DNA of 64,000 nucleotides from an uncultured Alphaproteobacteria bacterium (GCA_934276735.1 CAKQTG010000002.1:270638-334637), one strand, 5' to 3'. Positions 4,713 through 29,979 are shown, counted from the first letter of the stretch. Notes: a model not told the origin generated them from the letters alone. Program-made: numbers and translations.

Positions 4713-4713
4713 T

Positions 4714-7593: not shown

Positions 7594-7628
7594 CTTTATC
7601 ACTAAATCACTTTATCACTTACTCACTA
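7592..7628. repeat. right inverted-repeat arm
   Basis: cactttatcactaaatcactttatcacttactcact is the reverse complement of the iterated left-arm motif. A bidirectional terminator hairpin follows at 7629-7660. Confidence 0.6.
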
Positions 7629-7652
7629 AAAAATGGGGCATCGCCCCATTTT

Positions 7653-8618: not shown

Positions 8619-8663
8619 GTCAAATATTATATCACAAAACGCATATGATAAAAACAGATTTTA

Positions 8664-10463: not shown

Positions 10464-10464
10464 C

Positions 10465-12228: not shown

Positions 12229-12337
12229 TTGTAATCCTTGTGTCCTTTCGGTGGAATTATATCACAAACAACTTGCGTTATGCCAGATTTTAAAACTATA
12301 ATTCAGCACGAATGTAACCCCAGGGGGAAAAGGAATA

Positions 12338-13062
12338 TGAAAAAATTATCTGTTTTGTTTTTAACCGCGATGTGCGCCGTGCCTGCGATGGCGGAACCAA
12401 TGTATGGCACATCTGACGAATACGATTATACGGACGAAGAAATCGCCCCATTGTCACAAGGTGCGCCATCGGTTGGATATTCCGCCCCGGCCCCCACATC
12501 AACATCGCGGCGCGGCGCGCGTGACAATTATGTTGGATTTCGCGTGCACCAGAACGCGCACCTGGCCATGAAATACGATGTAAATCACGGATACACCACA
12601 CATAAAACGAAAAAGAACACGGGGCTGAGTCTGAACGTCGGCAACCGTCTGACCGAATATGTGAAAATTGAATTTGAAACGGGATACACTGGCGCAAAAT
12701 TTACCAAGCGCGACACACATCACGATTACGATTTGTGGTCTAATATGCTGAACGTGTATATGTATAAAAACTTTGGCGGTGCGGTTGAACCGTATGCCGG
12801 ACTGGGCGTCGGAATGACCGGAATCTGGGGCGAAATATCCGGTGCGGCACCGCACATCACCGCATCAACGTTGGATTTGTCGGTCCAGGGTATGTTTGGT
12901 GTGAACTTTGCATTAAATGACCGGGTTGACCTGAACCTGGGGGCAAAGTATATTCGATATGGCCGCATTGAATTTGAACATAACAACGGCGAATACGCAA
13001 ACACCCGAATTGACGCCACCGAATTCTTTATCGGCGCGGCGTATAAGTTTGATGTAAAATAA
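12338..13062 (+). CDS. outer-membrane beta-barrel protein, OmpA/OmpW-like barrel domain
   Basis: An RBS (gggggaaaaggaa) lies upstream. The signal peptide is MKKLSVLFLTAMCAVPAMA. The protein has alternating-hydrophobic strands and ends FFIGAAYKFDVK. A terminator follows at 13063-13088. Confidence 0.5.
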
Positions 13063-13083
13063 AAATGCCCGTTTGGGCATTTT

Positions 13084-15413
<2,330 letters not shown>

Positions 15414-15523
15414 GTTCTCTCCATTACCAAAACTGTTATACCTGTTGCGTTTATTGTTTTATATTCTAATTATGATTGAATTCTTAGTAAAAATCAATTA
15501 CTTTTTTCATATAAATCACAAAA

Positions 15524-15558
15524 AAATAAAAACGCCCGCCAAAATCGACGGGCGCAGT
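15524..15558 (-). terminator. rho-independent terminator downstream of fabI
   Basis: On the minus strand, ctgcgcccgtcgattttggcgggcgtttttatttttttgtg forms a hairpin followed by a T-run. Confidence 0.55.
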
Positions 15559-15570
15559 GTGTGGATGAAA

Positions 15571-16383
15571 TTATTTTTCATCCAGCCCCTTTAACAAAAT
15601 ATCTTTCAATTCGTTCGGCATCATGCCCGTTGTGGAATAGCCACAGTCAACATGATGAATCTCGCCCGTGACGGCGGATGCCAGGTCACTGAACAGATAC
15701 ACCGCCGCCCCCGACACATCGTCCAGCGTCATGTTGCGACGCAATGGTGTCTGTTCCGCATTCAAGCGCAACATCGCCTTGAAACCGCCAACGCCCGACG
15801 ACGCCAGCGTCATAATCGGTCCTGCCGAAATCGCATTGACGCGAACATTGTCACGCCCCAGGTCGGATGCCAGATAACGCACACTGCTGTCCAAGGCAGA
15901 CTTTGCTACGCCCATAACATTATAATTCGGCACGGATTTTTCCCCACCAAAATACGTCAGGGCAACAATGCTGCCCCCATCGGTCATCAATTTTGACGCA
16001 CGACGAGTTAAGTCAACCAACGAATACACAGAAATATCCATTGTATTCTTGAAGTTCGCGCGAGTTGTATCGACATAGCGACCAGTCAATTCATTTTTAT
16101 CAGAAAACGCAATCGCGTGCAACATGCCGTCCAAATGCCCCCACTCGCGTTCAATGTTCGCAAACAACGAATCCATCTGTTCATCATTTTGGACATTACA
16201 TTCCTGGACAAATTTAGCCCCAATCGATTCGGCCAACGGACGCACGCGACGTTCCAGTGCCGGCATCGCGTAAGGCATCGCGATTTCCGCGCCCATTTCA
16301 TGCGCACGCCGTGCAATTGCCCACGCCATAGACCAATCGTTTGCAACGCCAGTAATCAGAATCTTTTTTCCTTTTAATAACAT
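15571..16383 (-). CDS. fabI: enoyl-ACP reductase (NADH)
   Basis: The product is an SDR with N-terminal GVANDWSMAWAIA. The catalytic Y...K is within the motif SVPNYNVMGVAKSALD. The start was trimmed to MLLKGKK (RBS aagggaag). Confidence 0.85.
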   Translation of the reverse strand: MLLKGKKILITGVANDWSMAWAIARRAHEMGAEIAMPYAMPALERRVRPLAESIGAKFVQECNVQNDEQMDSLFANIEREWGHLDGMLHAIAFSDKNELTGRYVDTTRANFKNTMDISVYSLVDLTRRASKLMTDGGSIVALTYFGGEKSVPNYNVMGVAKSALDSSVRYLASDLGRDNVRVNAISAGPIMTLASSGVGGFKAMLRLNAEQTPLRRNMTLDDVSGAAVYLFSDLASAVTGEIHHVDCGYSTTGMMPNELKDILLKGLDEK

Positions 16384-16474
16384 AATCTTCCCTTTTGTTA
16401 TTGATATTGGACACGACCAATATAGCACCCCTGTTTTAATAATTCTAGTATGAATTACTCCAACAAGATTCTTA

Positions 16475-17707
16475 TTACAAACAATCTCTTAACTCTTTAT
16501 TATATCGTAACATTGTTGGTTGATTGGCAGGATCGTACAATATGTTTTTTTGATCAAAAATTAATTCTACAGCATTACCATGATGATCAATCAACAAAAC
16601 ATCATTGCCTCTAGACCGCATTTCTATATTTCTGTTGCGATTTTGGGTTATTATTGCATGTCTATATGCATCTATGTAAACCATATTTTCCCATTTATCG
16701 AACAACTTATATTGTTCAGGGCTTTCCGCCCAAGACAAAGGAACAACATGATGTAGTTCAAACCCTACTGTTCTTTTAACTTTGTGTTTATTGAAATACG
16801 CTTCCTTCTCAGCAATCGAACGAGTCATAACATCAATTACCTCGCCTGCTTTCGTTTTAATCTTATGTGTTGACAAATTCAAGTCATCCCCCACCACATC
16901 AAAATGAGGACTTTGTGCAAACAAATGATATACTTGATCTATTTTATTTTTCCAATTATGCCAATCTCGCTGTGCAGTCTTATCCCCATCAAAATTTTCT
17001 GGTTTTAATTTATCAGACAAAATCTCTATAACTTTTATTTGCAGATATTTGCCTAACCTGCGATATGTGTGTATCAAATCAACACACTGTTCTAAAGTTA
17101 TAGAAAAACTCGTTCCCGAATCTACGGCTGAAACAAAAAACATGAATTCATATTTTGTAATCGTACCGATATGATATTCAGGCTCCTTCAATAATTGTAA
17201 AGCAATTTCTATATATCCACCCAACAAAGTATCTATCGCCTTTGTAAAAATAAATGATCTATTCAACAGATCTCTTTCTCTTATAAACTTTACGCCATCT
17301 GGTGATAACGACACATATTTTGGCGATATGCGCCCGTACGGCGAAATAAAATTTCTATTCTTGTCATATCTAGTTATCAGCCCCATACGGTGTAAGTCAA
17401 CGAAAATGTTTTTGCGTATTGAGTCTTGAGTTCCCTTTCCAACGGCTGCGTTAACTTCCTCACAAAATCTAGCATAATCATATTCATCTATTGTGTTTTC
17501 TGGCCGTTTCTTTGAATCGGTATCCCTTATTCTCAAAAGTTGATTATTTGGGGCATACCTATCCAAACACATAAGCATTTTATAAATTTCATCCATATCA
17601 TAACGATTATGTTCTGACGAAACACCACCGCGATAATTAACATCATTAACTCTTGCATCTATAAAAGATAACGCCTCGTTTGGACTCAATCCACTAACAT
17701 AAATCAT
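16475..17707 (-). CDS. putative restriction endonuclease (third gene of the RM operon)
   Basis: This 410 aa product has no recognisable motif. It overlaps the upstream methylase stop by 4 nt (ATGA) and shares the AT-rich composition of the methylases. Its size is comparable with Type IIS R proteins. Confidence 0.35.
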   Translation of the reverse strand: MIYVSGLSPNEALSFIDARVNDVNYRGGVSSEHNRYDMDEIYKMLMCLDRYAPNNQLLRIRDTDSKKRPENTIDEYDYARFCEEVNAAVGKGTQDSIRKNIFVDLHRMGLITRYDKNRNFISPYGRISPKYVSLSPDGVKFIRERDLLNRSFIFTKAIDTLLGGYIEIALQLLKEPEYHIGTITKYEFMFFVSAVDSGTSFSITLEQCVDLIHTYRRLGKYLQIKVIEILSDKLKPENFDGDKTAQRDWHNWKNKIDQVYHLFAQSPHFDVVGDDLNLSTHKIKTKAGEVIDVMTRSIAEKEAYFNKHKVKRTVGFELHHVVPLSWAESPEQYKLFDKWENMVYIDAYRHAIITQNRNRNIEMRSRGNDVLLIDHHGNAVELIFDQKNILYDPANQPTMLRYNKELRDCL

Positions 17708-18495
17708 TGCACTACCCCTAGATTATTTTTTGTTAACTCTACATATTTTTTTGATTTGTCAGCACAAATATAGTTTCTATGCAATTTTTTTGCAACAACA
17801 GCTGTTGTTCCACTACCAACAAAACAATCCAAAACAAGTTCTCCTTTATTTGAACTCGCCAAAATCATGCGTTCAATCATTTCCTCTGGTTTTGGTGTGA
17901 CGTGCTGTTGTTTTTGCACTTTGCCATTAACTTTATTTTTGTGACGCTGACTTGTTATGTGCCACACTTCACCACATAACCTGCCATTCGGATTTGGAAA
18001 CCAACGTTTCCCATTTTTTAATATTCCTTTCGTTTTTGCAGCTTCTATTCTGTCTGTAGATTCATAAGGAACACGTATGTCATTGTGATTAAAAGTATAT
18101 TTATTAGACTTTGTAAAAAATAATATACTCTCTTGTCCATTTGCATATTTTTTTGTGGATGTACCGAGTCCATCCCTTTTATCCCAAGTGATCCAATTTT
18201 GGAACACTAGTCCACGTTTTAACAAATGCTGCAAAATAAACGCACAATTAAAAGGTGTATTAAAAATATATATACTTCCTGTATCTTTCAGTTTTGGTAT
18301 AAGTGCGTCTATCCATTTTCTTGTAAATTTCATAAAATCATCATGCGATGCAAATGTGTCCCAATCAGCTTTCCCCATATTGTAAGGTGGATCTATGACA
18401 GCCAAATCAACAGATAAGTTCTTTACCTGTTTCAGGAAGTTTATACAATCCATATTATAAATTTCGTTAATCGCCAAACAACCCATCGCTAGCAC
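17704..18495 (-). CDS. beta-class DNA methyltransferase (N6-adenine type, DPPY)
   Basis: Motif IV is VIDPPYNMG near the N-terminus and motif I is LDCFVGSGTTAVVA near the C-terminus. Confidence 0.75.
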   Translation of the reverse strand: MLAMGCLAINEIYNMDCINFLKQVKNLSVDLAVIDPPYNMGKADWDTFASHDDFMKFTRKWIDALIPKLKDTGSIYIFNTPFNCAFILQHLLKRGLVFQNWITWDKRDGLGTSTKKYANGQESILFFTKSNKYTFNHNDIRVPYESTDRIEAAKTKGILKNGKRWFPNPNGRLCGEVWHITSQRHKNKVNGKVQKQQHVTPKPEEMIERMILASSNKGELVLDCFVGSGTTAVVAKKLHRNYICADKSKKYVELTKNNLGVVQ

Positions 18496-19387
18496 CTAAC
18501 TTTTTATTGATTATATCTTTGTAATGATCATACAATTCATATCCTACAAAATGTCTCTTGTTTTCTTTTGCAACTTTAAGTGTTGTTCCGCTACCCGCGA
18601 AAGGATCAAGTATCAATTCACCAACAAAAGAATACAATCTAATCAATCTGCGAGCTATTTCTTCAGGCATGATAGCTGAATGTATACCAAATGCAAGATC
18701 GCCTTTTCCAGGGATTGGTATGTTCCAAATCTGCTTTGTATATTCGACCCACTCTTGCTGTGTTAGCTGGCTGGCATCTTTTATATCCTGTGGCAACCCA
18801 TTTTCAGGACTTCCTTCTTTCACAAATACTACTATGAATTCACACGAATTCTGGGCATAAAAATTACGTGGATATGGATAACTGCCAAACATCAATTTCT
18901 TGGACGAATTTGTTCTGTTCCATATAAACAAATCCAATAAAAATAATTTTGTGTTTTTTAATATTGACTGTTGTATGTGACTCTGTAAATCAAATATGTC
19001 CCTGTTATAATGCGTGCACATTTGGGATTTCAACATCGGCATTAACGGAACATTTATGCACAACTTACCATTAGGCTTCAACACCCTTTCACATTCTTTC
19101 CAAATTTTTACTAAACCTGCGATATAATCATCAAAATCGGCATAAGCCCCCATATCATCACACTTCCTTTCAGAATGTTTACAATCTTGGTGACCATCTT
19201 TACTGTAATCTTTTATGTTAAAATATGGCGGTGATGTCACAATAACCTGAACCGAATTATCCGGCAATTCTGACATTTTTTCCGAACTTTTGTAGAAAAC
19301 TTTATCAATGTATTCTTTCATTTTCTTTCCTTGCTGAAAACTTAGCCCAAAACAATGGATAAAGTCAAGGGAACAATCAAAAAACAT
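18467..19387 (-). CDS. beta-class DNA methyltransferase (SPPY type, N4-cytosine or N6-adenine)
   Basis: Motif IV is VTSPPYFNIKDY and motif I is LDPFAGSGTT. It overlaps the next methylase gene by 29 nt. Confidence 0.75.
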   Translation of the reverse strand: MFFDCSLDFIHCFGLSFQQGKKMKEYIDKVFYKSSEKMSELPDNSVQVIVTSPPYFNIKDYSKDGHQDCKHSERKCDDMGAYADFDDYIAGLVKIWKECERVLKPNGKLCINVPLMPMLKSQMCTHYNRDIFDLQSHIQQSILKNTKLFLLDLFIWNRTNSSKKLMFGSYPYPRNFYAQNSCEFIVVFVKEGSPENGLPQDIKDASQLTQQEWVEYTKQIWNIPIPGKGDLAFGIHSAIMPEEIARRLIRLYSFVGELILDPFAGSGTTLKVAKENKRHFVGYELYDHYKDIINKKLGASDGLFGD

Positions 19388-20025
19388 ATAAGCCTTTGAT
19401 ATTATATAACACTTGAAAAAATTATTACTTTTGTGTACGATTTTATTGTTTGCCAGAGAGGTTCCTTTTTGGCTTGGTGCATTGCCGTAATACCTATTGA
19501 AAAGGGAGGCAATATAACATTGTGCCCGAGTCCGATGAGCTTGAACTCATCAAATAACAAAAAGGATGTCACCATGGTAAAATACCAAATTGGCAGAAGT
19601 GCTGTGACAGGACGTTTTGTACCAGTTAGGGCTGCGCAAAACAAACCTCGCACACACGTTGTTGAAACTATAAAGAAAAAGTAGTTTTAACGTTCTCTCC
19701 GGCAAACATTATACCACATTTTGACATTTATTTGTATAAAAAACTAAACACACATTAAAAAAATGAAAAAAAGACACATTTGATAACGAAATTGTGGACA
19801 TGATAAAAACCCTTGAATATTGTAAAGTCACCGCCCGCGCGAACATAATGACACACGGTTTGTTTTATAAAGAATTACAATATTACATACGCATTGGTTT
19901 TTATCCTTTTGATTTATGCCAATTCTAGCACACACCCAAAAAATGTCAATTTTTATATAATTTACAACAAATGAAAAAAAAAAACTTGAAATGCATAAAA
20001 AAAAATTATAAGATATGCGGGCTAT

Positions 20026-20101
20026 TCGGGCATAGTTCAGTCGGTAGAACAACGGACTGTTAATCCGTATGTCACTGGTTCGAGTCCAGTTGCCCGAGCC
20101 A
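20026..20101 (+). tRNA. tRNA-Asn (anticodon GTT)
   Basis: A cloverleaf can be drawn with acceptor TCGGGCA/TGCCCGA, D-arm GTTC-AGTCGGTA-GAAC, anticodon arm ACGGA-CTGTTAA-TCCGT and T-arm ACTGG-TTCGAGT-CCAGT. CCA is encoded. Confidence 0.85.
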
Positions 20102-20746
20102 CCTATTTCCGCAGATTTCTGCGGATTTTTTATTATCTATTCTCTACCACGTTTTTATGCAAAATTGGATGAAAGTTGCTCTAAATTGCCCTAGTTATAA
20201 AACAAAAACACATATTTGACACACAGTAATATATACTATTACTGCTGAAATCATCTCTGAAATCACACAGATTTCATACTTGAAACCATAGATGAAATCG
20301 TGATGGAATCATACCTGATTTCAGTATTGATTTCATACCTGAAAAGAGCCTTTTTTTGCCTGCGAAATATGGAACGCTATTCCGTCAGTCACAAAACCAA
20401 AACACACAAAAATCAAACAGTTATAAAAATACGATTTTTCCCCATGTGTCAAATATGTGTCTTTATTTTTGCACTTTTTTATTTTTGAATAAACAACTGG
20501 ACAAAGACAAAAAATAAGCACAAATGCAATGATTACTTAAAGTATTTATAAACGACAAATATCCAACCGGCCTAATAATAGCCCACCCCCAAAAAAAGCA
20601 AACGTGTTTTATATCGCTATGGGGTACAAAATTTACATAAAATATAACCTGCTTCCTCTTGAAAAATTTGAATTCGATCCTATATCTATCTGCACAAAGG
20701 AAGATTTTTATGCGTATATTTATAAACATAATCGGATATTGTACAG

Positions 20747-21262
20747 ATGGAGAATGGCATGCAACCAAAACACCAAGTGTTTTTTAGTTTTCATTTTGCC
20801 CGCGATGCCTGGCGAGCAGGTCAGGTAAGAAACATTAGAGATTTGGACGGCAATACGCCCGTGTCTGATAATGATTGGGAACAGGTTAAACGCGGCGGGG
20901 ATGCGGCGATTCGAACTTGGATAGAAAATCAATTGAAATACAAATCTTGTACAATTGTTTTGATAGGGACGGAAACTGCAAGTCGTCCATGGGTTAATTA
21001 TGAAATTAAGCGAAGTTGGGAGCTTGGCAAAGGCGTGTTGGGGATTTATGTGCATAATTTGCAAGACCGCATGTGCACTCAATCGCCCAAAGGGTCAAAC
21101 CCTTTTGCAAATTTTAATTTGAATGGTGTGCCTTTTGATAAAATTGTTCCAGTATATTGTGTCGAAGATTGGGAACCAAGCACAGAAGTTTATAAAAAAA
21201 TTGCCACAAATATTGGTTCGTGGGTGGAGAACGCAATTAGGATCCGGCAATTATACCCTTAA
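20747..21262 (+). CDS. TIR-like domain protein (DUF1863/MTH538-type, ThsB-like)
   Basis: The N-terminus VFFSFHFARDAWRAGQV and the segment CTIVLIG...SRPWVNYEIKRSWELGKG are hallmarks of the DUF1863 TIR-like family. Confidence 0.65.
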   Translation: MENGMQPKHQVFFSFHFARDAWRAGQVRNIRDLDGNTPVSDNDWEQVKRGGDAAIRTWIENQLKYKSCTIVLIGTETASRPWVNYEIKRSWELGKGVLGIYVHNLQDRMCTQSPKGSNPFANFNLNGVPFDKIVPVYCVEDWEPSTEVYKKIATNIGSWVENAIRIRQLYP

Positions 21263-21267
21263 CAGAT

Positions 21268-21921
21268 ATGGAGGAATATATGAGCAATTATTTTAATATA
21301 AAAGATTTCGATACACTTGAATTAAAATCACCCCCACGGCATTTTAATAATAGTTTTGCGTGTGACGAGTCGATTGGCAAACAGGGTGCGTATGATATAT
21401 TTATCTCCCATAGCTCTGCAAACAGGGAGCTTATCAGCAAATTACGGCAAGTTTTGGAAGAACGGTTTGGTTTGTCCGCATATATTGATTGGGATGAAGA
21501 TGGTGGTACAATAAGAGACGAAATTACAGAAAAAATAAAAAACGCTATGGATCGTTCTAAATCTCTATTATATGTAAAGACATCAGAATCTGACGACTCT
21601 CAATGGGTAGCATGGGAGGTAGGAAGGTTCGATGCAAAAAAACCAGATAATATTGCTGTCTTGCTTATTGAAGATGATAAATTTACCGAGGACACATGGC
21701 GACACAGAGAGTTTTTAAAGGATTATCAAATATTAGATAAAACAGATAATATTAAAGATTTTGTAAATATGGGACATAAAAAATTCTTCACTGCCAAACA
21801 AGCGCGCGACCTATCTTCTAAACTCAATTCTGGTGCAATCGCGGCAGTGGCTGCAATGGGGTCGTTATGCGATGTAACCCCCGGGTTAGGAACGCCAACG
21901 AAATACTTTGGTGACGAATAA
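21268..21921 (+). CDS. TIR domain protein (canonical bacterial TIR, ThsB-like)
   Basis: The sequence YDIFISHSSANRE...SAYIDWDE...SQWVAWEVGRF contains a candidate catalytic Glu in WEVG. The RBS is ggagg, and the gene is 5 nt downstream of the previous gene. Confidence 0.7.
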   Translation: MEEYMSNYFNIKDFDTLELKSPPRHFNNSFACDESIGKQGAYDIFISHSSANRELISKLRQVLEERFGLSAYIDWDEDGGTIRDEITEKIKNAMDRSKSLLYVKTSESDDSQWVAWEVGRFDAKKPDNIAVLLIEDDKFTEDTWRHREFLKDYQILDKTDNIKDFVNMGHKKFFTAKQARDLSSKLNSGAIAAVAAMGSLCDVTPGLGTPTKYFGDE

Positions 21922-21927
21922 TATAAA

Positions 21928-22458
21928 ATGAGAAAATTTACGAACACCAAACCCAGTTTATGGTATTTTAGACTTGCATTTGTAATTTTGAGCAGGTTCC
22001 CTAATTGTAAATGTCGCTGGGGTGCGAGAGACAAATTTATTATTTGGGAATATACGTATGTTTCACAAATAACACACAAGGCGTTCACGTTTTGTTTAAA
22101 TTACGAAATCTATCAAGAGCCTCGAATATGGGTTGTAGAGCCAGACCTTACACAACTTGCAGCTACAGAATTAAAACACGTTTATCCCCAACACTGCAAT
22201 CGTTTATGCTTGTTTCACCCCCACGATGCGCCATGGAATACACGCAAGGATATTATTAACACTATCATTACATGGGCGTTTTTATGGGTCGAATTTTATG
22301 AGTCCTGGAAAATTACAGGTTTTTGGTATGGAGCAGAGGCAGATCATACTCCAATACAAAAAACACACCAAAGCAATTTATCAAGGGAAACGCACCAGAA
22401 AAAACACTATAATAAAAATCTTCCTAAATATTTGAAAAACCATCCAATTAGATACTAG
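21928..22458 (+). CDS. hypothetical protein, third gene of the TIR operon (candidate effector)
   Basis: The 176 aa, Trp-rich product has no recognisable motif. It starts 6 nt after the TIR gene stop. Confidence 0.45.
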   Translation: MRKFTNTKPSLWYFRLAFVILSRFPNCKCRWGARDKFIIWEYTYVSQITHKAFTFCLNYEIYQEPRIWVVEPDLTQLAATELKHVYPQHCNRLCLFHPHDAPWNTRKDIINTIITWAFLWVEFYESWKITGFWYGAEADHTPIQKTHQSNLSRETHQKKHYNKNLPKYLKNHPIRY

Positions 22459-22569
22459 CCGTGTGTTTTATCGATATGACATTTGCTAACTTTTTACAAT
22501 CTTGTTTATAACCTCAATAAAACCATTCCCATTTTTCGCTGAATAAAGCCAGTGCTGTTTTTTTGCCTG

Positions 22570-23079
22570 TTATAGCTTTAGATGGCAGGTCCCTATTGTT
22601 GATAGGACATAATATACTACTAGTATCAATATGATAAAAAATGCAATCTTATAAACACTAAGCGATTTTGAGTTTAGAACATCTGACATACGAATGTACG
22701 TTTGTATATTTGCGATATTCATATCAAATAGAGCACATTTGTCCGCCAACGCATCGGTATATTTTTGGCGATAACACCGTTCCAGCCACAAATAATAAGC
22801 ATCAAACCAGAAAAAGCTAAGTGTCAATATAATTGCTAAAACAAGCAAGGCTACGTTTGGCAGTTTAAAATACAAAGCTATGAGTCCGCCGACAGAAACC
22901 ATAAACCAATTTTTTATCGAAAAGGAATTGCCATTCATTCTGGCAATAATATTCTGCAACATTTCTAAAAATTTAATTTTTTCGCTTTGCATACGATTAA
23001 CGATACTACACATCGATATAAATGCAAGTAAAACCAGAATTTTTGCACAAAAACCGGACTTCCGCAAAAAAACAAGCAC
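22570..23079 (-). CDS. small multi-pass membrane protein
   Basis: There are three to four hydrophobic helices across 169 aa. The start is ambiguous and could be 23079, 23010 or 22992. Confidence 0.4.
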   Translation of the reverse strand: MLVFLRKSGFCAKILVLLAFISMCSIVNRMQSEKIKFLEMLQNIIARMNGNSFSIKNWFMVSVGGLIALYFKLPNVALLVLAIILTLSFFWFDAYYLWLERCYRQKYTDALADKCALFDMNIANIQTYIRMSDVLNSKSLSVYKIAFFIILILVVYYVLSTIGTCHLKL

Positions 23080-23109
23080 AAATGCAACAACTTTTAAAGG
23101 GGTTGCATA

Positions 23110-23375
23110 TGAATTTCAAACATTTTGATGATATTAAACCAAATGATAAGGCACAATTTGAGATGCTATATTTTTCTGCCCAAAGGGCTTTAAGAAGGTT
23201 AGAACTTAAACTAAACAGGATTTATAACGGTAAAACGCCAAAACATTTGCGTATAGAATTAAAACAACTCAACCGCAAACTCACCCAAATGGCAGGCACA
23301 TGGAAAAATATATATTCCCCTTGCATTTACATAGAATTTTTTATATTCATTATGAATGAGAAAGAATACGTATGA
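23110..23375 (+). CDS. small hypothetical protein
   Basis: An RBS (aaagggg) lies 8 nt upstream. The 88 aa basic helical product starts MNFKHFDD.... Confidence 0.3.
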
Positions 23376-23431
23376 AACGGCTCTAAAATAGTTATTGATA
23401 TATTAAAAATATTTGTATATTAGGAGATATT

Positions 23432-23635
23432 ATGAAATTCGGAATCAGAACACCTTCGTTGAGTAAAAGAATTGCAGCAAGAACATCTTTAAAAAGAATT
23501 ATTAGACATAATTTGGGTGTTAAAGTTCCCAGAGGCTTCGGATGGATAACAAACCCTAAAAAAGCTGCCTATAACAGGGTATATAATAGAACCTCTATAA
23601 GCATCGATAAGCTATTCAAGAAAATCTTTAAATAA
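23432..23635 (+). CDS. small basic hypothetical protein
   Basis: A strong RBS (ttaggagatatt) precedes the ATG. The product is 67 aa and lysine/arginine rich. Confidence 0.35.
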   Translation: MKFGIRTPSLSKRIAARTSLKRIIRHNLGVKVPRGFGWITNPKKAAYNRVYNRTSISIDKLFKKIFK

Positions 23636-23650
23636 CATAGGAGTCAAGTT

Positions 23651-23884
23651 ATGAGTTCTACAATATGGCATTCAAATACAGAAGTTCCAGAAAATGGGGC
23701 TGATATTTTATGTATCGGCCATAACAGTAATGGCGACTTTATAATTTATGGCAAGGCAGAACATTATCAAAATAGTTTTTGTATTGTTGACAATGTAGAG
23801 GTTGAATATGCCACTGATATAGACAAGTGGTGTTATGCGAAAGATTTATTGGAATTATTAAAAAAAACTGACAGTTATAAATAA
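23651..23884 (+). CDS. small hypothetical protein
   Basis: The RBS is cataggagtcaagtt followed by ATG. The product is 77 aa. Confidence 0.35.
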   Translation: MSSTIWHSNTEVPENGADILCIGHNSNGDFIIYGKAEHYQNSFCIVDNVEVEYATDIDKWCYAKDLLELLKKTDSYK

Positions 23885-24141
23885 CCCATTAAAAATTCTA
23901 TAATATAACTATGATATGTTGGTACTAGGTACATCGTATATAACCGCATAAATTGCGGTTATATATTTAGTCGTTTTAAAGAACTTGAGAATTGAACGAG
24001 GCGCATAAACTCTCTTTCTTTATTTCAAAACAATTTGTTTTAGTATTTTACAGCTCCTCTAGTACACTTCTAATTTGCTCAGAAACGTTTAACCTGCCAA
24101 CGAGCCCCAGTAGTTTTTTTAAGAATTTGGGAAATTTAAGA

Positions 24142-25836
24142 TTATTTTGATAAGCGCACATCTATTAAATCTTTTATCTCGCTATTCTTGAATAAATTGT
24201 TATATGAAAATTTTGATCCAAGTTCTTCTTGCTTTTTGCTTGCTATATTTTTGACAACCTCTTCTGCTTTTTCTATATTTTTATTAAAAAGAGCCACAAC
24301 TTCTTTTTCTTGGATATTGGGAAGTTTTAAATTAGCTTCTATAGATGATAATGCATACATTATTGCATAAATAGCATGCGAAAAGAAAGTATCTGTTGCT
24401 GCTTTATTTTTTATTTCTTTCCAAACAATGTATGCGTTATACAATTTATTTTGTATATTATTTTCTAGTTCTTTTTCAGAAAAAACAGAATCAAAATACT
24501 GGTTAAAAACAGATATTTTTGACACCTTCGCTTTTCCCGGCTCATTCAAAAACATAGCCACATAAGCCTGTAATAAATTTTCATTAGTTATGCTATCATT
24601 ATAATCTGTTAGTTCCTGTCCAACTTTTACAATTAAAGCAACTCCCTTGGTTTTAAAATACAGAGCTACTTTTTCTTGAATAAGATCATTAGATTTTAAA
24701 TCAACAACATTGATTGGGTTTTGGGAATTTGTTGCTTGTGCTATTTGTTGCATAATATCAGGATCTTTAGTTTTATACACACGCAATAACACTTTCGCCT
24801 TACTTAATTGTTCATAATTTTGTGATTCCCGATAAAATTTTGATAAAGCAGCAACGGTTTGCCCACCGTTAACTATACTCGGGCGCGTCAAAGTCAAGTT
24901 TATTTTTTCCTTATTACCTGTATGACCAGTTTTATAATCATCTGCTATAATTGTAATACCATTATTAAAAAACCAAAACAGTTCTGGTTTTTCACTTGCT
25001 GTTTTAATAATTTCTTTATTAATTTTACTTTTAGGCAAAAGATATCTCACATTGGAATTCAACAAAGCACCTTCATTGTTTTGTTTATAAAAATCAACTA
25101 AGTCACTTAAATATACTTCGGTTATAAACCCCGTTATAACCTGTGGTAAATCTTGTTTTAGAGTTTTGTCATCACAAATAATTTTTATTGTCGCACTATC
25201 AGGAACCTTCTCTTTTAATCCAAAATTTGTACTATCTATAAAATTTACATTTATCTCGTTGTTTATAGCTGTTTCTACAGCATCAGATTGCTTTAACACT
25301 TCCCCAATTATACCATTCGTTGAAAAGAAAACATGTACTCTGAGAGTAGGCCAATCATTTTGCTCACAAACCTCTCTAAGTTTATCAAGTTTTGATTTTA
25401 GCAACAAATTTGTAGTAGATAAATTCTCGCCCTTTTTTATTTTTTCTACGTTTTTTAGACATAATTCTATTTCATCTTGTGTAAATGTATTTTTGGCCTT
25501 TTTAGAAACGTGTTTGGCTTGTACTACAATCACATCCATAAATTTTTCATTAGAATTTGGCAGGGACACTATACTTTCATCATCAAAATATAGCAAATCT
25601 ATTTTGTTATCGCCACTGCCGTCCGTTAAGAAACAAATCGAAGAATTTATATCTACTTTTTTATATTCCATTATAGTAACTACAGCAGTAGCCAAAGAGT
25701 TAATATATTCTTTGTTTTGCAAACCTTGCCCATAATGCTTTTTAGCATATTCAGACTTTTTTATTAGCTTAGTGTTATCTTCTATTAGTCTATTAAATTT
25801 ATTTAAAGCATATTCATTTATGGAGGCATTAGACAT
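24142..25836 (-). CDS. AIPR family abortive-infection protein
   Basis: The N-terminal region reads CFLTDGSGDNKIDLLYFDDESIV, resembling the AIPR DGSGDxGID core. The gene is 564 aa and starts 10 bp after the R gene stop. Confidence 0.6.
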   Translation of the reverse strand: MSNASINEYALNKFNRLIEDNTKLIKKSEYAKKHYGQGLQNKEYINSLATAVVTIMEYKKVDINSSICFLTDGSGDNKIDLLYFDDESIVSLPNSNEKFMDVIVVQAKHVSKKAKNTFTQDEIELCLKNVEKIKKGENLSTTNLLLKSKLDKLREVCEQNDWPTLRVHVFFSTNGIIGEVLKQSDAVETAINNEINVNFIDSTNFGLKEKVPDSATIKIICDDKTLKQDLPQVITGFITEVYLSDLVDFYKQNNEGALLNSNVRYLLPKSKINKEIIKTASEKPELFWFFNNGITIIADDYKTGHTGNKEKINLTLTRPSIVNGGQTVAALSKFYRESQNYEQLSKAKVLLRVYKTKDPDIMQQIAQATNSQNPINVVDLKSNDLIQEKVALYFKTKGVALIVKVGQELTDYNDSITNENLLQAYVAMFLNEPGKAKVSKISVFNQYFDSVFSEKELENNIQNKLYNAYIVWKEIKNKAATDTFFSHAIYAIMYALSSIEANLKLPNIQEKEVVALFNKNIEKAEEVVKNIASKKQEELGSKFSYNNLFKNSEIKDLIDVRLSK

Positions 25837-25846
25837 TTTATTTACC

Positions 25847-26743
25847 TTACCTTAATAGCCCTTCCAACACACCTTTTTGAACCATGTCGATGTTAAGGAT
25901 ATAATCTGTTGTATCAAAAGTATCGCGTAACGGTCGCTGAGTTTTCTGCCAGCCTAAACCATCCGTTATCCATATAAACTGGTGCCCGTCTTTTGTCCAC
26001 TGATGATAAATATCTGCATATTCGCCTGCGGTTGATTTTAATTTTGATCCGCCACCGCCATAGAAATTTGTTTCTATCAGATATAGTTTATTAGGGGTAT
26101 TTATAGCAAAATCAACACGCTTGGATGATTTATTCACAATAATATTTTTACTCCATTTTCTATAAATTTTATCTGCTGTCGCCTGCGCAATATATTCATA
26201 ACCATTACGGTCACAAATATCTTTTATAAAATATTCCATCAAGTTTTCCATTGATGTGCCACTGCGGTTCTTGCGCCCATTTGAATCAAGTCCAACTTCT
26301 ACACCAAGAAAATAATCTGGTATAGATTTAATTGTACGGTCAGATACTAAATCAAGGAAGCCACTTGCTTTCATAAATAGGACACCATCCTCTGCAGACA
26401 TAGGCTTTGAAAAGTCAAAGCATTTAAGTCCAAAAGTTTTTATATCTGAAACAAGTTTAATTTTCTTTTCTCTATCGGCTAACAGTGCCGGTATAACACC
26501 TATAATTTTTGGATATTCCTTTAATAAATCTTTTGCTGCTTTTTCAACATCCGCCTTACCAATCAGAGTATTCAATAAGTTTAGTGCAATCTCTGCTTCG
26601 TGATAATTATTGATAACTTTTGACCAGTTAACAAAATAATCCCAAGATGTTATACTTTCTTTTAGGGTTGAAATCAAATAACCAAAAACGTCATCTTCGT
26701 TCTTGCAGCCCAAAAGTTCATCAAAAATTTTAGAATACTTCAT
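25847..26743 (-). CDS. Type II restriction endonuclease, DpnII/MboI-like (GATC-type system inferred)
   Basis: This is the third gene of a Dam-like M / beta-class M / R cassette with the same order and similar sizes to dpnM-dpnA-dpnB. It overlaps the upstream methylase gene by 4 nt. The product is 298 aa. Confidence 0.5.
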   Translation of the reverse strand: MKYSKIFDELLGCKNEDDVFGYLISTLKESITSWDYFVNWSKVINNYHEAEIALNLLNTLIGKADVEKAAKDLLKEYPKIIGVIPALLADREKKIKLVSDIKTFGLKCFDFSKPMSAEDGVLFMKASGFLDLVSDRTIKSIPDYFLGVEVGLDSNGRKNRSGTSMENLMEYFIKDICDRNGYEYIAQATADKIYRKWSKNIIVNKSSKRVDFAINTPNKLYLIETNFYGGGGSKLKSTAGEYADIYHQWTKDGHQFIWITDGLGWQKTQRPLRDTFDTTDYILNIDMVQKGVLEGLLR

Positions 26744-27525
26744 TTTATTCCTTTCTTTTCAAGGATATCATACAGCCTTTTTTCTGCCAATTCAACAAAT
26801 TGCGTTTCCTGTTCTATACCGACAAACATTCTGTCATATTTTAATGCCGCAACCCCAGTTGTACCACTGCCCATAAAAGGATCTAATATTAAATCGCCCA
26901 GATTTGTACAACATAAAATTATTCTTTCCAATAAATCCAAAGGCTTTTGTGTTGGATGCTTGCCAAAAGTTTTTTCTGATTTTGATGGCGTTGGAATAGA
27001 CCAAACACTGCGCATCTGGCAATCTGGCTTTTTCAAAATATCTTTTGGGAATGAACCACATTTCATGGCATCGTAATTAAATATATGTTTCGCGTTCTTA
27101 CTTTTTCTCGCCCAGATAAGTGTTTCATGGCTCGCGGTAAAGTATCTACAAGACATATTTGGACTAGCATTTGGTTTATACCACGCAACATCATTTAATA
27201 TATGAAAGCCCAACAACTGCATTGCAAAGCCACATGAGTATATACTGTGGTATGTACCACTTATCCAAATTGTGCCATTTGGTTTTAACACTCGCCAGCA
27301 TGCAGAAAGCCACTTTTTATGAAACTCAAAATCATTCATCAGTCCGTGCGACTCGTCCCACTTGCCTTTATTAACCGATACAACTTGACCATTTTGGCAC
27401 GTTATCCCCCCATTTGACAACATATAAGGCGGATCCGCAAAAATCATATCAAAGGTATTTTCTGGAATCTTTTCCAGACACGTTAAGCAATCTTCACAAT
27501 AAAGGCGAAAAGGTTTCTTAGTCAT
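26740..27525 (-). CDS. beta-class N6-adenine DNA methyltransferase (DpnA-like)
   Basis: Motif IV is IFADPPYMLSNGG near the N-terminus and motif I is LDPFMGSGTTGVAA near the C-terminus. Confidence 0.8.
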   Translation of the reverse strand: MTKKPFRLYCEDCLTCLEKIPENTFDMIFADPPYMLSNGGITCQNGQVVSVNKGKWDESHGLMNDFEFHKKWLSACWRVLKPNGTIWISGTYHSIYSCGFAMQLLGFHILNDVAWYKPNASPNMSCRYFTASHETLIWARKSKNAKHIFNYDAMKCGSFPKDILKKPDCQMRSVWSIPTPSKSEKTFGKHPTQKPLDLLERIILCCTNLGDLILDPFMGSGTTGVAALKYDRMFVGIEQETQFVELAEKRLYDILEKKGIK

Positions 27526-28450
27526 AATTAGTTATCAATAACTCACGAATAGCACTGCGCCCGTCTGCATTTGCATTTATCAAACGCTTTGCAAGTATTC
27601 TATTTATATTATAGTCTTGGTATAAATCATCAAAGAATGTGTCTTTTATATAATTTGTTGGATCAGAATTACTTAACATTTGTAAAGCACCCGCTTTATC
27701 ACACGCTTCAAAAACATTCTTAAGGCGAATTTGCTCATCATCATTAAAATCCCCAACAGCATAAGAATTAAACGAAGATGTTTTTCTAATCGGGCGATAT
27801 GGTGGGTCGTAATAGATAAACGTATCTTTATTTACATACTCTTGAACAGAACTAAAATCTGTTTGGATAATAGTCGCAATCTGTAAAGCGTCTGATACAT
27901 TGCGCAAATTTTCTGCGTCTAATATTCTTGGGTTGGTATACTTACCCATCGGAACATTAAACATATTTTTCGAATTAACACGAAACAATCCATTAAAACA
28001 CGTTCTGTTTAAGAATATGGTCAACGCTACACGTCTGACAAACCGCTGATTATAAATATTTGCATCGACGGTTTTGTCCATGTTGTTATATTCATCACGC
28101 CTTGCGTAATAATATTCTTTTTTATCTTCTGTATGATTATACTCTGCACTTATTTTTGTCAGTTCAACTATCAATTTTTCAACATCATGTTTGATAACAT
28201 TATACAGAATAACCAACTCAGGATTGATATCAAACAAGAAAGCCTCTTTGATTGAGAACCGATTATAAATATCGAAGAACACAGCCCCACCACCAACAAA
28301 GGGTTCTATGTATCTTTTTATCCCACCCATTTTCAATTTTAAGGGCAGTTTTTCATCGATTTTATCTAATAGCTGTCCCTTGCCCCCTGCCCATTTTAAT
28401 ACAGGTTTGCACTCAATATAATCCGCTAATTTTGCTGGCAGTGGTGACAA
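27518..28450 (-). CDS. Dam-family (alpha-class) N6-adenine DNA methyltransferase (DpnM-like)
   Basis: Motif I is EPFVGGGAVFFDI near the N-terminus and motif IV is IYYDPPYRP. The Dam family recognises GATC. Confidence 0.8.
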   Translation of the reverse strand: MSPLPAKLADYIECKPVLKWAGGKGQLLDKIDEKLPLKLKMGGIKRYIEPFVGGGAVFFDIYNRFSIKEAFLFDINPELVILYNVIKHDVEKLIVELTKISAEYNHTEDKKEYYYARRDEYNNMDKTVDANIYNQRFVRRVALTIFLNRTCFNGLFRVNSKNMFNVPMGKYTNPRILDAENLRNVSDALQIATIIQTDFSSVQEYVNKDTFIYYDPPYRPIRKTSSFNSYAVGDFNDDEQIRLKNVFEACDKAGALQMLSNSDPTNYIKDTFFDDLYQDYNINRILAKRLINANADGRSAIRELLITNYD

Positions 28451-28671
28451 TTTTTCCTTTCCTTTACGATTTGATATTACAAAATCACGCCACCTAAATC
28501 CAGTAGTTATTTTTTACTTGTGGTTGTTTTTAATTGCTTTTGATTACTTTAAAAACTTTGAACAAAAACACACAGAAACACATAGAAATAGTACACAGCC
28601 GATGTCACCACAAACAAAAAAATCCAAGTTTTCTGCGGAATTCAGCCATTTTTGAAAAAATTGTACAATTC

Positions 28672-28728
28672 ACTGTTAATCTGTATGTCACTGGTTCGAG
28701 TCCAGTTGCCCGAGCCACAAATTCCAGG
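28672..28728 (+). repeat. direct repeat of the tRNA-Asn 3' half (att-type island boundary)
   Basis: The 47 nt sequence actgttaatctgtatgtcactggttcgagtccagttgcccgagccac matches tRNA positions 20056-20102 with one mismatch. Confidence 0.8.
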
Positions 28729-28748
28729 GTTCCCAATCGGGGCCCTGT

Positions 28749-29135
28749 TTATTTTTTCAATTCCACCAATTTTTGAGATATGATGTGGTCGGCGGGTAAT
28801 TGCGGATGCGCCAGCAATTCGGTCACATGCACCCAGTGCATTTGGTCATGAACGCGCAATTCTATTTCCCCAGAAAAACCCGTAATTTCATACGCATACA
28901 AATTGATTTCACGTCCCGTATCGGTCACAAAGTGCACAACCGTCACCAGGTCACCAATTTCGGCATTTATGCCCAATTCTTCGTTCAATTCACGGGCCAG
29001 ACACGACGGGCCATCTTCGCCCGGCTCAAATTTACCCCCGGGATATTCCCACGCGCCGGCACATGGCTGGTTTTGCGCACGCCGCATCAGTAAAACAGAG
29101 TTACCATCACGAAAAATTGCCGCCGTTACGTTCAT
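28749..29135 (-). CDS. Nudix hydrolase (MutT-like)
   Basis: The Nudix box is GGKFEPGEDGPSCLARELNEELGI. Confidence 0.75.
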   Translation of the reverse strand: MNVTAAIFRDGNSVLLMRRAQNQPCAGAWEYPGGKFEPGEDGPSCLARELNEELGINAEIGDLVTVVHFVTDTGREINLYAYEITGFSGEIELRVHDQMHWVHVTELLAHPQLPADHIISQKLVELKK

Positions 29136-29274
29136 GTGTTTTATGATATAAAACCACTCATATCAATGCAAGGAATTTGGACTATAAACCGATTGACAAA
29201 ATATGATTTTTTAGTCTATGCTGGCCCCATAGTCATAAGACAAATTTCTGCATCTAAATCCCGGGGGGCACGCA

Positions 29275-29612
29275 TGGAACGCACAGAAACACATAAAATC
29301 ACAATTACGTTGAAATTTGAACTGTTACTAGGCGACAAAGACATATGTTGCAGCATTTGCGGCCAACCGATAACCAAGAAACAAAAAATGTCCATTGATC
29401 ATCACATTCCGCGCATGCACGGCGGGACCGACTATCGCGGAAATCTGTTTCCGGCGCACCAAATTTGCAATTCGATAAAGGGCGACCTGATGCCCGAGGA
29501 ATTTGAGGCCCGCAAAGAAGACCTGTTTGGGCACGCATTAGTTTCGTGGAAATTAAAGAAGGTTGATGTTGCAATCGTCGCACGCGCGTTGGCCAGCATG
29601 CGCAGCAAATAA
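29275..29612 (+). CDS. HNH endonuclease domain protein
   Basis: The motif CSICGQP...SIDHHIPRMHGGTDYRGNLFPAHQICNSIKG is an HNH motif. The start was trimmed to MERTETH (RBS gggggg). The long ORF from 29136 would abut the Nudix gene start codon. Confidence 0.55.
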
Positions 29613-29979
29613 AAATCCATTAAACCGTGAACTTGATAGGTATAAAAAAGGACCACTCACAGCAGAGAGCGGTCGGGGAGTTAACAAATCATATTCACGG
29701 ATGATTCTGTCGCCTTTGGGTTGTCCCTGTTTTATAGCGATCAGCCCCCCGACCCGTTCAGGTCAGGGTATCGGTATTACTTGATTCATACCGACGGCGG
29801 ATATGATGCATCCATGCACCACGTGAATATGGACTTGTTAAAGTCCTGAACCAAAATCCCTTTTGTGTTCGCAGACCATTTTACAAAAACCCGGCCATCA
29901 TTTCAATATAAAATTATAAAAAACGCCCCGACGGGTATCCATGAGGGGGCGAGAATGACATGAAAACTGTTGCGCCGCA

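Follow-up and report, generated by a model that had tools for sequence, protein, structure and literature searches.

We found that the AT-rich defence island lying between a tRNA-Asn gene and a partial copy of its 3' end is best read as a non-autonomous, CIME-like element that sits at tRNA-Asn and is moved by a P4-type phage tyrosine integrase not of its own making; we give this reading a probability of about 0.7, the movement being something we infer. The window, that is the whole stretch of 64,000 nucleotides analysed here, comes from an uncultured Alphaproteobacteria bacterium. The insertion site has the following features:

20026..20101, + strand: intact tRNA-Asn(GTT) gene, its 3' part forming the attL core (ARAGORN; Rfam tRNA, 74 bits)
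20056..20102, + strand: first copy of the 47-nt core (attL), starting in the anticodon loop and ending 1 nt past the CCA (repeat alignment)
20108..20125, + strand: island-borne terminator hairpin, TCCGCAGATTTCTGCGGA plus a T-run, conserved behind the core in almost all related elements
28672..28718, + strand: second copy of the 47-nt core (attR), an incomplete tRNA-Asn 3' end that differs at 28682 only
28725..28747, + strand: native tRNA-Asn terminator, displaced by the insertion; the same hairpin lies directly 3' of the tRNA in contigs L001 and L002

The two core copies are identical at 46 of 47 positions, the sole difference being C at 20066 versus T at 28682. They are spaced 8,616 bp apart, with 8,569 bp of sequence between them. 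Within the 64 kb window the core occurs exactly twice (shuffled sequence contains none). A sequence-only reading had proposed that an intact tRNA-Asn(GTT) at 20026-20101 shares its 3' 47 nt, with one mismatch, with a repeat at 28672-28728, and that this is the signature of integration into a tRNA 3' end. The gene is confirmed by ARAGORN and Rfam and the shared 47 nt by alignment of the copies; the start of the repeat is also correct, but its true end is 28718, so that the proposed end overshoots by 10 nt.

The proposed mode of insertion is borne out by relatives with an empty site. Two metagenome contigs of the same species (L001 and L002; nucleotide identity 96% for ligA, 97% for fabI, 99% for the Nudix gene and 100% for the upstream restriction-modification (RM) system) lack the island. 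Their tRNA-Asn, identical in sequence to that of the window, is followed directly by the terminator and the Nudix gene, and the sequence after it is the one found after the partial core copy in the window. Because same-species contigs carry the unoccupied site joined to the distal flank, the island is a clean site-specific insertion of 8,616 bp, and integration into the tRNA 3' end is thus demonstrated directly. The tRNA is now terminated by the island hairpin at 20108-20125 and no longer by its native terminator. Of the hallmarks of tRNA-targeting genomic islands, the tRNA with its 3' direct repeat and the unoccupied site are present, and an internal integrase gene is absent.

GC content is 0.337 inside the island versus 0.494 at 1-16429 and 0.481 at 28719-64000. 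The earlier claim that the island is AT-rich, unlike the flanking fabI and Nudix genes, therefore stands for the island itself, but its left neighbour does not fit the picture, since the DNA that adjoins the tRNA on the left (16430-19965) has just as low a GC content (0.343). This segment is a separate insertion with a three-gene restriction-modification system and not native sequence; because it is also AT-rich, the contrast with fabI starts only 3.5 kb upstream of the tRNA.

Between the arms described below, the island carries the following genes and repeats:

20480..20529, + strand: left repeat flanking the TIR cassette, ~50 nt, its last 21 nt 95% identical to the right copy
20747..21262, + strand: ThsB-type TIR protein, 171 aa (Pfam ThsB_TIR, 7.7e-26; PADLOC ThsB1, 3.3e-66, and PDC-M50B, 2.9e-59)
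21268..21921, + strand: second TIR protein (TIR_2), 217 aa (Pfam TIR_2, 4.4e-11; PADLOC ThsB, 3.3e-29)
21928..22458, + strand: CBASS-type E2-like protein, 176 aa (PADLOC E2, 4.3e-29; PF26395 E2-CBASS, precomputed on the identical protein)
22570..23013, - strand: small predicted membrane protein of the PDC-M50A family (PADLOC PDC-M50A, 6e-27; 147 aa in L005)
23038..23087, + strand: right repeat flanking the TIR cassette
23109..23375, + strand: Orf70, conserved small gene and marker of the element family (homologues in related loci)
23432..23884, + strand: two small ORFs of 67 aa and 77 aa
24142..25836, - strand: AIPR / AbiU-like abortive-infection protein, 564 aa (Pfam AIPR, 6.1e-38; PADLOC AbiU, 1e-40)
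25847..26743, - strand: DpnII-family restriction endonuclease (Pfam DpnII, 8e-93, full length)
26740..27525, - strand: N6_N4 DNA methyltransferase, DpnA-like (Pfam, 1.1e-57; 96% amino acid identity in L023, OZ007020.1)
27518..28450, - strand: D12-class (Dam-like) adenine methyltransferase (Pfam MethyltransfD12, 1.3e-59; 95% amino acid identity in L023)

These Pfam and PADLOC matches agree with the cargo proposed earlier, namely a TIR operon, AIPR, a DpnII-like RM system and small ORFs. The endonuclease and the Dam-like and DpnA-like methylases form one co-directional cluster, a predicted DpnII-type RM system. The TIR-TIR-E2 genes together with the membrane protein gene look Thoeris-like: the ThsB TIR sensor/signal producer is represented by two ThsB-type TIR proteins, while a recognised ThsA effector (SIR2-SLOG or Macro-TM) is absent from the TIR cluster. 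The sole effector candidate, and the probable effector, is the PDC-M50A-family protein, whose membrane character is read from its hydrophobic sequence. The CBASS-type E2 is an additional component; Thoeris operons with Cap2/Cap3 are on record (bioRxiv 10.64898/2025.12.03.692087). L015, L021 and L023 lack the TIR cassette and have a single copy of the repeat that flanks it; the island is a composite with a nested, repeat-flanked TIR cassette.

The conserved part of Orf70 spans ~66 aa, and its C-terminal tail changes with the cargo (the gene is listed as a 117-aa ORF from 23022). Homologues lie ~330 nt past the left-arm motif in L014, L015, L021 and L023; in L027, L030, L033 and L035 an inserted cassette or extra sequence separates the left arm from Orf70, and 20 further homologue clusters were found (P0002-P0021). 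An AF2 model of Orf70 is a two-helix hairpin (pLDDT 71.5), with which a PDB fold search returned no match. The 67-aa ORF matches PHROG 3374 and other PHROGs of unknown function. Both small ORFs also occur in L035 and L043 and are missing from the otherwise similar L030 island.

The statement that the island has no integrase, excisionase or transposase withstood every search. Pfam, PADLOC, NCBIfam and PHROGs scans of the main island ORFs detected none of the three, and tblastn of the whole 64 kb window with the integrase and Xis proteins of the lineage itself gave no match. Moreover, the contigs that carry the best 120 integrase homologues are all shorter than the 745 kb contig of the window. 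Since no candidate was found either in the window or among these homologues on a contig of comparable length, a helper integrase in this genome is unproven and may be absent.

The two ends of the island are conserved and contain repeated motifs:

20102..20529, no strand: conserved left arm (P' side), 87-94% identical to related loci whatever cargo follows
20202..20214, + strand: candidate arm-type integrase-binding motif, the 13-mer ACARAAACACAYA
20246..20335, no strand: cluster of direct and inverted GAAATCA/TGATTTC repeats (inverted-repeat scan and left-arm alignment)
20396-20408: second left-arm copy of ACARAAACACAYA, with 1 mismatch
28534..28671, no strand: conserved right arm (P side), ~140 nt, matching the end of the L037 element and both right ends in L033, with further matches in L023, L026, L028 and L034
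28562-28584: two overlapping right-arm copies of ACARAAACACAYA

The first ~160 nt of the left arm are common to all family members and the remainder, to 20529, to the Orf70 subfamily. The 13-mer has five matches in the window versus 0.66 expected; four of them fall in the arms and share one strand, and these may be arm-type integrase-binding sites. The GAAATCA/TGATTTC cluster, whose copy number and orientation differ among family members, is a putative protein-binding array.

Related gut Alphaproteobacteria, also uncultured and with a Ca. Enterousia MAG among them, have elements at the same tRNA-Asn. These elements have the left arm, Orf70 and the right arm in common and differ in their defence cargo, and they frequently stand in tandem. 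About 15 loci have a left arm with 87-94% identity to that of the island, while the downstream content varies (matches in L011, L013-L021, L023, L024, L026-L028, L039 and L042); what follows it includes PLD-helicase/Eco57I, a reverse transcriptase, EcoO109I RM, GmrSD, type IIG RM with a TIR protein, and a MetK-like gene. Right-arm matches of 85-94% identity occur in L023 (two copies), L026, L028, L033 (two copies, 90-94%) and L034. Arrays of the form core-element-core are found in L015, L033 and L023, the last from the closed genome OZ007020.1. Contig L005 consists of the island only, which is accounted for by an assembly break at the repeat; it gives no direct evidence of excision.

Some larger elements use the same core as the island and carry recombinase genes. 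Arm plus core of the window (28534-28719, 186 nt) match L037 280-96 at 90%, and this end of L037 lies ~200 nt from the genes for an HTH_17 Xis and a 407-aa integrase. The core is identical at 44 of 46 positions in L037 (91%) and at 45 of 45 in L033, where the order is int, xis, DUF5677, the shared right arm and the core, followed by an Orf70 element that has no integrase. Over its first 390 nt, L023 matches the end of the L037 element at 96% identity, the start of xis included. The integrases of this lineage are P4-type with an Arm-DNA-bind_3 N-terminal domain (PF13356). In L036, which has the same integrase as L037, genes for DUF6362, a ParB-methylase and a GpA terminase lie beside int; the same genes accompany int in L039-L042, where the integrase is related and the right arm different. 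Hence the integrase-bearing partner appears to be a temperate phage, and likely is one. The core and the right arm are the parts seen to be common to the island and the L033/L037 elements, and blastn against the available 11 kb of phage-type elements gave no similarity beyond the att region, a search that a short cos site would escape.

Modules of the island are far more similar between hosts than the hosts are to each other. In L035, ligA and fabI are 76% and 78% identical to those of the window versus 98% for the TIR cassette, 99% for Orf70 and 99% for AIPR; in L030 the values are 69% and 77% versus 96% for the TIR cassette. The methylases of L023 are 94% identical, and L017, from the same genome, gives 75% for ligA and 80% for fabI. 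These identities show recent horizontal spread of island modules between species. Since the left arm of L035 is only 89% identical while the adjoining TIR cassette reaches 98%, homologous exchange within the element family is also shown.

We suggest the following sequence of events. A P4-type tyrosine integrase, not encoded by the island, would have inserted ~20102-28718 into the 3' end of tRNA-Asn. The island supplies a new tRNA 3' end and terminator at the left (attL), and the original pair is pushed to the right (attR). Family members retain only the att core, the left arm with Orf70 and the ~140-nt right arm, with interchangeable anti-phage cargo in between and a second, repeat-flanked cassette slot just upstream of Orf70. 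Larger elements using the same core encode the integrase and an HTH_17 excisionase. Because they share the core and, in one lineage, also the right arm, the Int/Xis pair of a phage-type element probably integrates and excises the island in trans; where island and element stand in tandem, the two may also move together, in cis. We infer both that an Int/Xis pair of the L033/L037 type acts on the island and the route by which the island passes between cells.

The sequence-only reading offered two fates, a fixed, degraded island or mobilisation in trans; the evidence speaks for the latter, given the conserved ends, the match of the right end to sequence close to Int/Xis and the near-identical modules in divergent hosts. 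Against mobilisation stand the lack of a helper integrase in the 64 kb window, the mismatch in attR and the decay of several related loci. The same observations fit a fixed relic that lost its own xis/int beside the right arm by deletion and is now immobile, its similarity to other hosts stemming from transfer before the loss. Decay is frequent at this locus (an N-terminal integrase remnant in L011, a DUF5677 fragment in L027, left arms without attR in several loci such as L019 and L011); many family members are decayed, and the island of the window could therefore be decayed too. However, we regard a relic as unlikely. Integrase-less elements with other cargo stop at the same arm boundaries, near window position 28534-28552, which independent deletions would not produce; both arms are still ~90% identical to functional-looking counterparts, and no xis or int pseudogene is left between 28450 and 28534. 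Moreover, the species has genomes with and without the island, whose modules keep 96-99% identity between hosts 20-30% apart.

Alternatively, homologous recombination (by transduction or transformation) could have copied the whole attL-island-attR unit from a donor within a larger piece of DNA, without a site-specific event in this genome; the mosaic of modules, with the 89% left arm and 98% TIR cassette of L035, fits this, and the tRNA and core offer identical anchors in all hosts. This is very unlikely, since the DNA right of attR is the species' own terminator and Nudix gene, the left junction falls exactly at the tRNA, and the right-hand crossover would have to fall within the 47-nt core. 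No wider imported tract is visible, because genomes that have the island and genomes that lack it share the same upstream RM block (100% identity), and site-specific integration would still be needed for the first formation of the unit. We find it scarcely credible that the island encodes a recombinase of an unrecognised kind, be it Orf70, the 67-aa or 77-aa ORF or another unannotated product. Orf70 is conserved in the family and always accompanies the left arm (with a cassette or sequence between them in some loci), and three small ORFs have no assigned function, but the predicted ~66-aa hairpin of Orf70 has no catalytic fold, the other two ORFs are missing from the similar L030 island, and the att geometry, the arms and the adjoining Int/Xis in relatives fit a classical tyrosine integrase.

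Mobility of defence islands often leaves no trace, and mobilisation by a phage-type element is a concrete, testable answer: the island keeps only that element's recombination sites, so its integrase could shuttle the island. If so, phages would spread host anti-phage genes in this uncultured, genome-reduced gut lineage, and a single tRNA gene would be the landing point for exchangeable immune cassettes. Further such cargo, including candidate systems like the TIR-TIR-E2-membrane protein cluster, can be searched for with the conserved arms and Orf70 as a signature. Tentatively, and with rather less than even confidence, the family might be viewed not as decayed islands but as minimal, self-sustaining 'att-hitchhikers', recombinase-free cassettes which would keep only the two attP arms and Orf70 of a temperate phage, use phage Int/Xis for integration, excision and joint travel in tandem, and form integron-like, swappable defence arrays at tRNA-Asn with a second nested slot upstream of Orf70, perhaps as the main route of immune-gene exchange in the reduced, ~1 Mb genomes of gut Alphaproteobacteria.

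tRNA-integrated islands with P4-type integrases, such as pathogenicity islands and P4-like satellites, encode their own integrase beside the tRNA. Our island resembles them in its tRNA 3'-end integration, direct repeat, atypical GC, defence cargo and PF13356 integrase family, but has no integrase. Like phage satellites (PICI, cf-PICI, P4-like, PLE) it is a small integrated element with defence genes and probably depends on a temperate phage; however, it lacks integrase, replication, regulation and capsid-redirecting genes. No island protein matches an integrase or the regulatory/replication modules of the satellites (PICI / P4-like). Integron arrays similarly consist of promoter-proximal, tandem, recombinase-less cassettes between repeated recombination sites, whereas here long arms flank the site, which is the 3' end of a tRNA, and the units are multigene, 2.6-9 kb long and have their own promoters. 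For an integron, IntI, attI and attC are lacking, and what is repeated is a tRNA 3' end and not an attC hairpin.

CIMEs of the ICESt1 family in streptococci stand in tandem with autonomous same-site elements (accretion) and are mobilised by the integrase of the partner (PMC5704250). The island is similar in retaining attL and attR (both cores and both arms) without integration and transfer genes, and in the relatedness of its att core and right arm to Int/Xis-bearing L037 and L033. Its mobilisation by the integrase of a partner is putative, with indirect support from the tandem helper-plus-island arrays of L023 and L033 and from the 96-99% identical modules in divergent hosts. In contrast to CIMEs, the partner is apparently a temperate phage and not a conjugative element, the integrase-less elements are a family with its own arms and Orf70 and not one-off deletion products, and the cargo is almost wholly anti-phage defence. 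Dehalococcoides ssrA islands form tandem arrays 3' of a small RNA gene, with 3'-end direct repeats and variable cargo, and those without an integration module are called cis-mobilizable by the authors (PMC3146451). Arrays at a small RNA gene, bounded by repeats, variable in cargo and in part without an integration module, are also what we found. The Dehalococcoides islands have a CcrB-like serine recombinase, a 20-bp repeat, a tmRNA gene and dehalogenase cargo (PMC3146451), whereas in the present system the recombinase is a tyrosine integrase, the repeat measures 46-47 nt, the target is tRNA-Asn, the cargo serves defence and the partner is likely a phage.

The intact tRNA-Asn(GTT) gene at 20026-20101, called by ARAGORN and Rfam, contributes its final 46 nt plus one base to a core (20056-20102) that recurs at 28672-28718, 8,616 bp away. 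Alignment of the two copies bore out the direct repeat of the tRNA 3' end with one mismatch (C at 20066 versus T at 28682) that the sequence-only reading had proposed; the right-hand limit it had set, 28728, was 10 nt too far. Further copies were found neither in the window nor in shuffled sequence. In an Rfam scan of 15-31 kb the tRNA alone passed, and no known RNA was found in the left arm (20102-20529). A sub-threshold match to sRNA-Xcc1 (37 bits versus a gathering score of 53, E = 0.0018) lies on the minus strand at 29663-29754, just downstream of an HNH gene.

An exact look-up of the Nudix protein (28749-29135) in metagenome contigs retrieved two contigs with an empty site, L001 and L002. 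Both belong to the same species as the window, as judged from nucleotide identities of 96% for ligA, 97% for fabI, 100% for the RM block and 99% for Nudix. Both have the gene order Nudix, tRNA-Asn and then, directly upstream, the RM genes and fabI. Their tRNA continues directly into CGAATTCCAGGGTTCCCAATCGGGGCCCTG, the terminator found 3' of the partial copy in the window. The window's intact tRNA has, in its place, a terminator contributed by the island (20108-20125). The junctions have the textbook attL/attR geometry of tRNA 3'-end integration, and the unoccupied site in the same species upholds the earlier claim of site-specific insertion. The island-only contig L005 was considered as evidence for a circular form and discarded: it begins and ends in the repeated core, which an assembly break at a repeat would produce.

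GC content is 0.337 between the core copies, versus 0.494 in 1-16429 and 0.481 in 28719-64000. The supposed contrast between an AT-rich island and its flanks holds by these values but fails for the left neighbour: a second insertion, equally AT-rich (GC 0.343), lies immediately left of the tRNA, where its 3.5 kb (16430-19965) come between fabI and the promoter of tRNA-Asn. Hence, the tRNA sits between two foreign blocks. The left block encodes a 410-aa type II restriction enzyme (PADLOC REase_II, 1.5e-117), two N6_N4 methylases and an 83-aa ORF. It is present at 100% identity in the same-species empty-site contigs but missing from related species, whose fabI and tRNA are ~150 nt apart. At its junctions, a short stretch around TAGCAC is imperfectly duplicated.

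We also considered a resident, integron-like integrase platform 5' of the tRNA, prompted by loci L009 (1-570) and L011 (3414-3508 and 5585-6028), in which int and xis precede a full tRNA-Asn with its own promoter. This was rejected for the window, because relatives have fabI directly beside the tRNA and, in the window, the space is filled by an RM insertion free of int remnants. L011 keeps a second copy of the promoter and the first ~38 nt of the tRNA beside fabI. These loci suggest that, in some integrase-bearing elements, the attP arm includes a complete copy of tRNA-Asn.

The island carries the following genes:

20747-21262, ThsB TIR protein
21268-21921, second TIR protein
21928-22458, CBASS-type E2
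22570-23013, small membrane protein, divergently oriented (PADLOC candidate family PDC-M50A)
23109-23375, Orf70, a small conserved gene
23432-23884, two small ORFs
24142-25836, AIPR/AbiU-like protein
25847-28450, DpnII endonuclease with N6_N4 and D12 methylases

The cargo is thus as first described, TIR, AIPR and DpnII-type RM genes plus small ORFs. Integrase, excisionase and transposase genes, also said to be missing, were not found when the main ORFs were scanned with Pfam, PADLOC, NCBIfam and PHROGs. The integrase and Xis proteins of the lineage, used as tblastn queries against all 64 kb, gave zero matches. Thoeris operons with CBASS-type ancillary genes have been described previously (bioRxiv 10.64898/2025.12.03.692087), so the island cargo is a variant of known systems. 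The C-terminus of the second TIR protein, whose gene adjoins that of the CBASS-type E2, reads ...KYFGDE, placing a glycine close to the end. This is reminiscent of the C-terminal tail on which Cap2-mediated conjugation relies in type II CBASS and in Cap2/Cap3-containing Thoeris operons.

A 26-mer from the left end of the island, scanned against species-representative genomes, had matches at 14 loci, each of them from an uncultured Alphaproteobacteria or proteobacteria MAG; among these are Ca. Enterousia avistercoris and OZ007020.1, a closed genome of 958 kb. Enterousia is part of the order Rs-D84, and it is the gut-dwelling members of this order that have genomes smaller than about 1 Mb (PMC12306168). 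In these relatives fabI is directly beside tRNA-Asn, and 3' of the tRNA or partial core come the same terminator and then a left arm 87-94% identical to that of the window. Approximately the first 160 nt of this arm are universal; a subfamily shares ~430 nt, followed by Orf70. In the left arm, a palindrome comes after a promoter-like TTGACA, and GAAATCA repeats form a variable array. In locus L033, an ~830-nt insertion with a 181-aa ORF (8026-8852) separates a core from the usual terminator and left arm, which is interrupted by a further ~300-nt insertion.

A protein search with Orf70 returned 21 clusters, the window's own among them, and without exception the gene is on the left-arm side. It starts ~330 nt past the left-arm motif in L014, L015, L021 and L023, and farther in wherever a cassette or extra sequence intervenes. 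Its AF2 model is a helical hairpin, for which Foldseek against PDB gave only E > 1; by neither the predicted fold nor Pfam is it an HTH excisionase. The cargo that follows the arm varies among the related loci:

L011 and L017, T5orf172, PLD-SNF2 helicase and Eco57I methylase with a resolvase shufflon
L015, MetK-like protein and resolvase
L023, GmrSD, PD-(D/E)XK nuclease and the window's two methylases
L027, reverse transcriptase and EcoO109I RM
L033, type IIG enzyme and TIR protein

An S-adenosylmethionine-synthetase-like gene occurs as cargo at 4177-5265 in L015, where a serine resolvase adjoins it, and at 5629-6639 in L023. The contig of L006/L011, followed toward its far end for an integrase, yielded only further defence genes and a serine invertase, which resembles a component of a specificity shufflon.

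Inserted between the left arm and Orf70 of the window are 2.5 kb (20530-23066) that L015, L021 and L023 lack and that hold the TIR-TIR-E2-membrane protein cluster. This cassette is flanked by a ~50-nt direct repeat (20480-20529 and 23038-23087; last 21 nt 95% identical), which is single-copy in the three loci without it. The slot holds the same cluster in L030 and L035. A 494-aa reverse transcriptase occupies this slot in L027-L029, where the duplication is found as well (8233-8283 and 9956-10006 in L027).

At the other end, a right arm of ~140 nt (28534-28671) is kept before partial cores in L023 (twice), L026, L028, L033 (twice) and L034. Core-element-core-element arrays are found in L015, L023 and L033; the second junction of L027 has decayed, with the right-arm motif present and the core absent. 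For the 13-mer ACARAAACACAYA, the window has five copies versus 0.66 expected. Four copies fall in the arms (20202, 20396, 28562 and 28572), all on the plus strand, as would be expected of candidate arm-type sites if the integrase has an arm-binding domain. A fifth, exact copy (ACAGAAACACATA, 29283-29295) lies inside the HNH ORF 29136-29612, ~565 nt beyond attR. The ~18 nt around it resemble right-arm sequence, and it could be a chance occurrence or a trace of an older element.

Integrases with these features are found at related loci. In L007, a partial tRNA-Asn core has a tyrosine integrase of 420 aa ~550 nt away; L009 and L033 encode homologues, L011 retains a remnant, and an HTH_17 (excisionase-type) gene stands between int and core in each homologue locus. 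The integrase domains are PF00589, Arm-DNA-bind_3 and Phage_int_M. L033 reads int, xis, DUF5677, a right arm as in the window, core and an integrase-less Orf70 element. Window positions 28534-28719 match L037 at 90% over 186 nt, just upstream of its xis and int. L036 has the same integrase as L037; L039-L042 have a related integrase and the same core with a different right arm. Further along, L036 and L039-L042 carry phage genes (DUF6362, ParB-methylase, GpA-type large terminase), so the integrase-bearing partners look like temperate phages. IMG/VR scans with the att core, left-arm motif, right-arm motif and Orf70 profile returned no phage with an intact attP; the core was found in L006 and L007 only, and the left end of the integrase-bearing elements was absent from the matches.

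L023, like L017 a stretch of the closed genome OZ007020.1, opens with 390 nt that match the end of the L037 element at 96%, the start of xis included. OZ007020.1 therefore holds a xis-bearing element in tandem with an integrase-less one, in which the window's methylases recur at 94% nucleotide identity. The right arm of L023 is also 94% identical, while ligA and fabI of this genome, read from L017, are at 75% and 80%. L035 matches the window at 98% in the TIR cassette, 99% in Orf70, 98% in the small ORFs and 99% in AIPR, versus 76% in ligA and 78% in fabI; L030 matches at 96% in the TIR cassette, versus 69% and 77%. Island-module identity is decoupled from host divergence.

Overall, we suggest, with a probability of roughly 70%, that the island is a non-autonomous element moved by a phage-type Int/Xis. 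No helper integrase lies within the 64 kb window, and none of the best 120 integrase homologues is on a contig as long as the 745 kb contig of the window. We consider a fixed relic unlikely, since both the decoupling from host divergence and the same-species contigs without the island argue against long fixation. Acquisition solely by homologous exchange appears improbable. DUS/USS uptake signals, sought to test a transformation route, were not found in the window. A hidden recombinase is the least credible explanation.

In keeping its att sites and lacking integration and transfer genes, the island fits the published definition of cis-mobilizable elements (PMC5704250). It is also similar to the Dehalococcoides tandem ssrA islands, some of which are without an integration module (PMC3146451). 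Four points set it apart from both of these systems: its partner looks like a phage, discrete arm boundaries and a marker gene are common to the integrase-less elements, defence genes make up the cargo, and a second cassette slot is present.

At least four right-arm types occur on the same 46-nt tRNA-Asn core: besides that of the window, type 2 (L013, L016, L018, L020), type 3 (L007, L024) and another in L039-L042. Three of them have an adjacent integrase, 25-63% identical to that of L033, and several are directly followed by the conserved left arm. Several element lineages hence compete for, or stack at, the tRNA-Asn site.
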